Source: Squalus acanthias
Taxonomy: Eukaryota
Direction of reading: 5' to 3'
DNA: 64,000 nt
NCBI GenBank assembly: GCA_030390025.1
Contig: CM059426.1
Coordinates: 200,942,001 to 201,006,000 of the forward strand
A program made the position numbers and the translations under genes. The notes beneath the pieces were generated by a model. It saw only the letters and a list, made by a program, of their open reading frames with translations. It ran no database searches and was not told the DNA's origin. Positions 22,132 through 22,252 of this stretch are shown here, piece after piece. Each line of letters starts with the position of its first letter. Within the stretch, counting starts at the first letter, position 1.

Positions 22132-22252
22132 TGACAGGAGAGTTTATTAATACCATTGATAACGAAACACTGTCCTCCATTCACACAATAGTGCCGATCG
22201 CTCTTGTTGCATGGCCTTGCGTGGCCTGACCAAGGCGTAGGTGAAGTGGTAG
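22132..22252 (-). CDS. NRG1: Neuregulin EGF-common exon (121 nt), xTTSPTPWSGHARPCNKSDRHYCVNGGQCFVINGINKLSC(Q); NRG2-like sequence
   Basis: gttcttcccatctgcag|ctaccac...ctcctgtca|gtaagt; phase 1-2; holds EGF cysteines 1-4 with the YCVNGG motif; joins in frame to both alpha and beta exons. Confidence 0.95.

Follow-up and report, generated by a model that had tools for sequence, protein, structure and literature searches.

The NRG2-like EGF-common exon of shark neuregulin-1 most likely reflects little change since the NRG1/NRG2 duplication

In the genome of Squalus acanthias, a stretch of 64,000 nucleotides (hereinafter referred to as the window; C2:200.94-201.01 Mb of a 3.7-Gb genome) contains neuregulin exons of seemingly mixed type: an NRG2-like EGF-common exon followed by alpha, beta and linker exons that resemble those of human NRG1. 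In NRG1, an Ig or type III first exon is spliced to the EGF-common exon, and either the alpha or the beta exon completes the six-cysteine EGF domain. The protein is a membrane precursor whose EGF domain is shed, and ErbB3 or ErbB4 is activated together with ErbB2. The question raised by this locus is therefore which gene it represents and how its exons came to look mosaic. The exon was interpreted here as the EGF-common exon of shark NRG1, and its likeness to NRG2 is most probably a sign of how little it has altered since the NRG1/NRG2 duplication (probability about 0.88).

The exon (22252-22132, minus strand) spans 121 nt between an AG acceptor and a GT donor and encodes TTSPTPWSGHARPCNKSDRHYCVNGGQCFVINGINKLSC. 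Its Cys3-Cys4 spacing is 10 residues, and an N-K-S sequon lies right after Cys1; the coordinates, peptide, loop and sequon described in the original prediction were confirmed on re-reading the sequence, with canonical splice ends. A sequon with Lys as its central residue was found in the window exon only, with N-E-S or N-D-S at this site in the 24 matching proteins described below. The features of the gene are as follows.

22132..22252, minus strand: EGF-common exon, coding for Cys1 to Cys4 with a B loop of 10 residues and the N-K-S sequon; one run X5 contig covers its full length
14596..14663, minus strand: EGF alpha exon, NRG1-type; spliced from 22132 in run X5
13722..13780, minus strand: EGF beta exon, from sequence and PDB alignment
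13693..13721, minus strand: beta3 read-through with a stop at 13693; predicted isoform without a C-terminal TM
4481..4504, minus strand: linker (beta1) exon, 24 nt
1..19, minus strand: 5' end of the TM exon, the rest of which continues below the window
about C2:201032333-201032975, upstream and outside the window: type III first exon
about C2:201062718-201062837 and 201068377-201068562, upstream and outside the window: two Ig exons

The six-Cys EGF pattern is completed by the alpha exon or by the beta exon. In the PDB alignment, all 19 residues of the beta exon agree with human NRG1 beta, and 18 of them are common with shark NRG2. The linker exon and its flanks are nearly identical in shark NRG2, the linker having one change, and the alpha exon shows 7 differences from the shark NRG2 alpha exon in the first 18 residues. 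The type III cysteine-rich first exon sits between the Ig and EGF exons, and together with the two Ig exons it lies 68-104 kb upstream of the EGF-common exon. After the TM exon, four tail exons were found within 13 kb below the window. Among the non-coding features, an intron array of 21-bp-type tandem repeats was located at about 57700-58300 of the window, with repeating peptides in two frames, and dispersed repeats were numerous (e.g., 17369-17801 and 6719-7255), with copies also in introns of the C3 locus described below.

A search with an HMM of 13 bony NRG1 EGF exons over 164 kb of contig C2 and 100 kb of contig C3 gave no second EGF-common exon, in agreement with the original prediction; the window exon scored 51.7 bits, an exon on C3 40.2 bits, and the next-best frame 7.7 bits. 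A mixed gene could also come from a misassembly between 14663 and 22132 that placed an NRG2 exon next to NRG1 exons. No read-derived piece runs across the whole intron, which by itself proves nothing, but the 164 kb of C2 contain zero N, and in one run X5 contig 22132 is spliced to 14663 with GT-AG ends, a junction that the original prediction had named for checking (the splice was seen in one of four runs, the RNA status of X5 is a guess, and the other three runs, without coverage of the exon, carry no weight either way). Further, gene models from 13 other species show the same exon combination, and C3 carries the true NRG2 exon. Misassembly was refuted by these cross-species gene models together with the observed junction, and its remaining probability is negligible.

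The window gene is shark NRG1. A PF02158 profile search of the genome gave two loci only, the window gene, where the neuregulin intracellular domain and the TM exon are present downstream of the EGF exon, and C3:133.45 Mb. When the window exon was used as query, a second EGF exon was found on C3, at 133420964, and a third on C23, the latter NRG3-like by comparison with named proteins. This C23 exon (C23:503469-503567, plus strand) has a 12-residue loop, and a second FUT10/11-like match was also located on C23; in the tail of the C23 gene, no PF02158 match was found. Among candidate proteins, 24 of 25 matched the window exon at 90-98%, of which 23, from 13 shark and ray species, were named NRG1 and one was unnamed.

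Gene order was congruent with this identity. A fucosyltransferase gene, which we take to be FUT10, lies about 126 kb past the 3' end. About 1 Mb upstream, a WRN exonuclease exon was identified (PDB match, E 1.5e-21), with a PUR gene, presumably PURG, head-to-head with WRN. The human NRG1 neighbourhood has WRN/PURG upstream and FUT10 downstream. The separate NRG2-like locus on C3 is flanked by a PUR gene and a CXXC gene; we take these to be PURA and CXXC5, the neighbours of NRG2, which flank the C3 locus and not the window gene. The gene orders on C2 and C3 match the human NRG1 and NRG2 neighbourhoods and support the identities of both genes. The synteny, the upstream type III exon and the separate NRG2 locus had been put forward as checks in the original prediction, and none of the outcomes it named as contrary (an NRG2 locus, a misassembly, another EGF exon) occurred. 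MAK16 was dropped as a synteny marker, as it gave one weak match, on another contig (C17). Beside the CXXC exon, at C3:134033001-134043000 (plus strand), a 405-residue open frame was observed that by eye resembles a LINE-type reverse transcriptase.

The alternative that the window gene is an ordinary chondrichthyan NRG2, or a shark-only fourth NRG1/2-like paralogue, was weighed against the same data. Its EGF exon is NRG2-like, and the type III, beta and linker exons are common to both shark genes, so that a type III exon is not diagnostic in sharks. However, the neighbours of the gene are WRN, PUR and a fucosyltransferase, and the genome has only one further PF02158 locus. In a tree of the TM and tail region (20 of 34 rows, after removal of the amphioxus row, three rows of NRG3 and ten that were nearly redundant), chondrichthyan and bony NRG2 formed one group at 100/100, with shark NRG1 outside; the C3 locus joins bony NRG2 at this support via its shark orthologues. 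Shark NRG1 grouped with bony NRG1 at 85/77 (not starred), a moderate support that leaves some room for the alternative. A quick tail tree that included amphioxus and NRG3 placed the root inside bony NRG1, with a long-branch warning. The type III region of the window gene matched bony NRG1 at 53-62% identity, and its alpha exon and TM residues are NRG1-type. In addition, the paddlefish NRG1 EGF exon searched against the genome found the window exon first (E 8e-7), with the NRG2 exon at 0.024. An NRG2 or fourth-paralogue identity is accordingly very improbable.

With the gene identified as NRG1, its mosaic look is an artefact of comparison with mammals and is most likely due to shared ancestry. 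The beta, beta3 and linker exons had been regarded as NRG1-specific, but in shark NRG2 on C3 the beta exon, the beta3 read-through and the linker are all of this type, and NRG1-like beta or linker exons are also present in chimaera, carp and lizard NRG2 and in lamprey and hagfish. The mammalian NRG2 beta exon and linker are a divergent form; the NRG2 N-half and beta exon quoted in the original prediction were found to be the same in rodent and panda NRG2. The description of the ligand as a natural NRG2/NRG1 chimera was not upheld, since shark NRG2 itself has the supposedly NRG1-type exons.

The supposedly NRG2-type N-half is likewise found outside NRG2. A hagfish NRG1-like protein has the N-half SGHSRVCNDS and the exon end QLSCQ. 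At the 28 positions of the window exon compared (Cys and the middle of the loop left out), 7 residues are common to NRG2 and absent from bony NRG1, of which 6 recur in outgroups, and 5 residues are common to bony NRG1 and found in no NRG2. The Trp preceding SGH in the window exon is common to some NRG2s only. In an exon tree of 31 rows and 42 columns, shark NRG1 lay at near-zero distance from the NRG1/2 base and bony NRG1 formed a long branch, and all 13 NRG2 rows fell on one branch (90/100) with the window exon outside. The best topology was without a clade of shark and bony NRG1, which was only not rejected when forced (p-AU 0.22). The comparison set had no NRG1 from chimaera, coelacanth, lungfish or bichir, nor the EGF-common exon of lamprey.

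In the elasmobranch pro-neuregulin-1 records of NCBI (e.g., Heptranchias perlo, Scyliorhinus torazame, Leucoraja erinacea), the EGF-common exon is 90-98% identical and the alpha, beta, linker, TM, Ig and type III exons are the same as in the window gene, whereas the middle of the sequon is Glu or Asp in place of Lys. Bony NRG1/heregulin (human EGF domain: PDB 7MN5, 3U7U, 1HAE) is like the window gene in neighbourhood, type III exon, tail and beta residues and shares the His of the N-terminal strand, but only 13 of 39 residues of the window exon are identical in dog NRG1 and 20-22 of 39 in paddlefish and axolotl. Jawed-vertebrate NRG2 (shark, chimaera, gar, lungfish, mammals) shares with the window exon the 10-residue loop, the SGHAR start, the sequon after Cys1 and the GIN-x-LSC end. 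Shark NRG2 is also like the window gene in its beta, beta3, linker and type III-like exons; it differs in locus, neighbours and alpha exon, belongs to a separate clade, and has tail exons about 45-60% identical to those of the window gene. The cyclostome neuregulin-1-like proteins (Myxine, Eptatretus, Petromyzon) share the SGH-x-R N-half, the N-x-S sequon and the LSC-Q end, as well as alternative alpha and beta exons, the linker and an NRG1-like TM; the hagfish protein differs from the window exon in its loop of 12. According to PMC2834686, the NRG1-3 regions derive from one protochromosome.

The pre-duplication gene would have had an SGH-x-R-x-C-N-x-S/T N-half, a short B loop, and a beta exon and linker of the kind found in human NRG1. 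Sharks would have kept both halves of this ancestral neuregulin in both paralogues, whereas bony-vertebrate NRG1 would have gained three loop residues and altered its N-half, and mammalian NRG2 would have altered its beta and linker exons. It is these changes in the bony and mammalian genes that would make the shark gene seem mosaic against mammals.

Complete or partial conversion of the NRG1 EGF-common exon by NRG2 in an ancestor of sharks and rays, overwriting a 13-residue bony-type exon, would also give an NRG2-like exon in an NRG1 gene. The window exon is indeed nearer to NRG2s (23-26 of 39 residues) than to bony NRG1s (13-22 of 39), the two shark paralogues are identical over 16 nt at its 3' end, and a clade of shark NRG1 and chondrichthyan NRG2 was not formally rejected (p-AU 0.077), so that a very old or very short conversion tract is conceivable. 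In contrast, silent differences between the shark paralogues, counted at codons for residues identical in both, amounted to 13/24 in the EGF-common exon and 116/209 in the TM and tail exons (Fisher p=1.0), a level of divergence that argues against conversion. The intron flanks of the exon do not align between the paralogues. Moreover, of its 39 residues the shark NRG2 exon has 32-34 in common with NRG2 of chimaera, gar and lungfish but 24 in common with the window exon. The clade that unites shark NRG1 with chondrichthyan NRG2 is absent from the best tree and was 11.7 log-likelihood units worse when forced, and the exon type is already present in hagfish. The five residues shared with bony NRG1 and with no NRG2 also speak against replacement by an NRG2 exon.

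Silent differences were few in the alpha, beta and linker exons (2/11, 2/17 and 0/5, respectively; alpha counted on the first 18 codons, linker including one codon across the donor site), which makes nearby homogenisation conceivable. Taken together, these exons showed 4/33 silent differences compared with 129/233 in the EGF-common, TM and tail exons (p 3e-6). The regions compared were window 13823-13680, 14663-14596 and the linker against C3:133433875-133434015, 133433592-133433660 and 133451705-133451841. Between shark NRG1 and NRG2, identity over beta and linker with their conserved intron flanks was 83-86%. In alternative exons, splicing signals can constrain silent sites. The low silent divergence may come from such constraint or from conversion; for alpha, constraint fits better, because 7 of 18 residues differ and yet the silent sites are kept. 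Exon-level conversion, the second of the two origins considered in the original prediction, is improbable for the EGF-common exon. The first, an ancestral N-half kept in sharks with a loop insertion in bony vertebrates, gained support from the hagfish outgroup, the exon tree and a census of loop lengths.

In this census, among the 120 matches listed of 3116, the Cys3-Cys4 loop had 10 residues in all 11 elasmobranch sequences, and in bony NRG1 it had 13 residues in 98 of 109 and 12 in the other 11. As all 109 bony loops are of 12-13 residues, the longer NRG1 loop probably arose in bony vertebrates; that the human loop is three residues longer was confirmed in PDB alignments. The eleven 12-residue loops belong to lizards and snakes, one residue shorter than in other bony vertebrates. 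The 10-residue loop of the window exon falls outside the bony range of 12-13, a clade trait that leaves orthology unaffected. Loops of 10 residues were also found in an acorn worm, in an annelid and in another hagfish paralogue. Since a length of 12 was seen in the first hagfish protein and in NRG3, and of 16 in amphioxus, the loop is labile and 10 is not the sole outgroup state; 10 residues is nevertheless the likeliest length in the NRG1/2 ancestor. Traces of the shark form were seen in bony vertebrates, such as GH before Cys1 in tailed-frog and paddlefish NRG1 and NGI in the frog loop. The second hagfish gene, from Myxine glutinosa, encodes a divergent neuregulin (10-residue loop, beta-type exon, linker, TM) that is named 'uncharacterized' at its source.

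The NRG2 gene on C3 contained, in addition, an intact type III-like first exon between its Ig and EGF exons (C3:133377028-133377667, plus strand). It comprises about 213 codons, opens with an ATG and has a CCxC motif, a hydrophobic helix, a spacer rich in Ser/Thr and a GT donor of matching phase. Against an HMM built from eight NRG1 type III exons it scored 79 bits, compared with <=5.1 in 200 shuffles. In an NCBI model of Chiloscyllium punctatum carrying an 'NRG1-like' name (XP_072446932), a type III exon is spliced to the NRG2 EGF exon; this was the sole type III isoform among the shark NRG2 records examined. Judging from these exons, shark NRG2 would make a predicted type III isoform, a candidate dual-pass protein. 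PMC9118086 places NRG2 among the single-pass neuregulins and both NRG1 type III and NRG3 among the dual-pass ones, and PMC4482254 lists three first exons for zebrafish nrg2a, none of them type III.

In amphioxus (Branchiostoma lanceolatum), a neuregulin has Ig isoforms as well as isoforms (XP_066304703 and four others) with a type III-like N-terminal helix (residues 25-63 of XP_066304703), a weaker match that scored 15.9 bits compared with <=6.7 in 500 shuffles. The amphioxus isoforms suggest that the Ig and type III isoform classes may predate vertebrates. NRG3 N-termini scored 22-44 bits on the type III HMM. On the same HMM, the N-terminus of the second hagfish paralogue was no better than shuffles. 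In zebrafish, nrg2a isoform X21 is Ig-less and has CC-x3-C and a hydrophobic helix in residues 1-162, maybe a diverged type III exon; it was not accepted as a type III homologue, its score being reached by 3/200 and 7/500 shuffles, and is suggestive only.

The shark protein likely follows established NRG1 biology, in which case it would be shed below the EGF domain and is a predicted ErbB3/ErbB4 ligand with ErbB2. PMC7566517 reports that His2Ala and Leu3Ala reduce binding to both receptors, HER3 more, and that combined changes at His2, Lys24 and Pro29 give HER4 selectivity. In the alignment of the shark EGF domain with human NRG1 structures in the PDB, His2 is kept, Leu3 is replaced by Ala and Lys24 by Asn, and the Pro29 stretch has no counterpart. 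Given the effects of those mutants, Ala3, Asn24 and the missing Pro29 stretch make it a reasonable prediction that the shark domain would tilt toward ErbB4 on human receptors; however, the loop of NRG2 is equally short, and the receptors of sharks may have evolved together with the ligand.

The findings can be joined in a wider scenario, which we put forward tentatively and regard as rather unlikely when taken as a whole. Both shark paralogues would have kept the whole ancestral toolkit, with a near-ancestral, ErbB4-favouring EGF domain in shark NRG1 and a dual-pass type III form of shark NRG2; the bony changes at Leu3, Lys24, Pro29 and the loop would represent a gain of strong ErbB3 agonism, and the membrane anchor would predate vertebrates and myelin.

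The gene itself is ordinary and is already annotated as NRG1 in related sharks, and the value of the EGF-common exon lies in dating the loop change to the bony-vertebrate stem. Among the titles and opening lines of abstracts in the literature, no paper dealt with the EGF exon of shark NRG1 or with an NRG2 of type III, and the history of the loop may already be in print. If the wider scenario is true, bony vertebrates would have rebuilt the very positions that tune ErbB3 versus ErbB4 in the human ligand, and the short-loop shark NRG1 beta domain offers a natural probe for the effect of the loop on ErbB3/ErbB4 preference. To specialists, the type III exon in shark NRG2 is of more weight than the dating of the loop. 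If confirmed, the split between shed and membrane-tethered forms would be older than the gene duplications, NRG2 having lost and NRG3 kept the tethered form, and a type III NRG2 with its amphioxus counterpart would bear on the origin of the axonal myelination signal.
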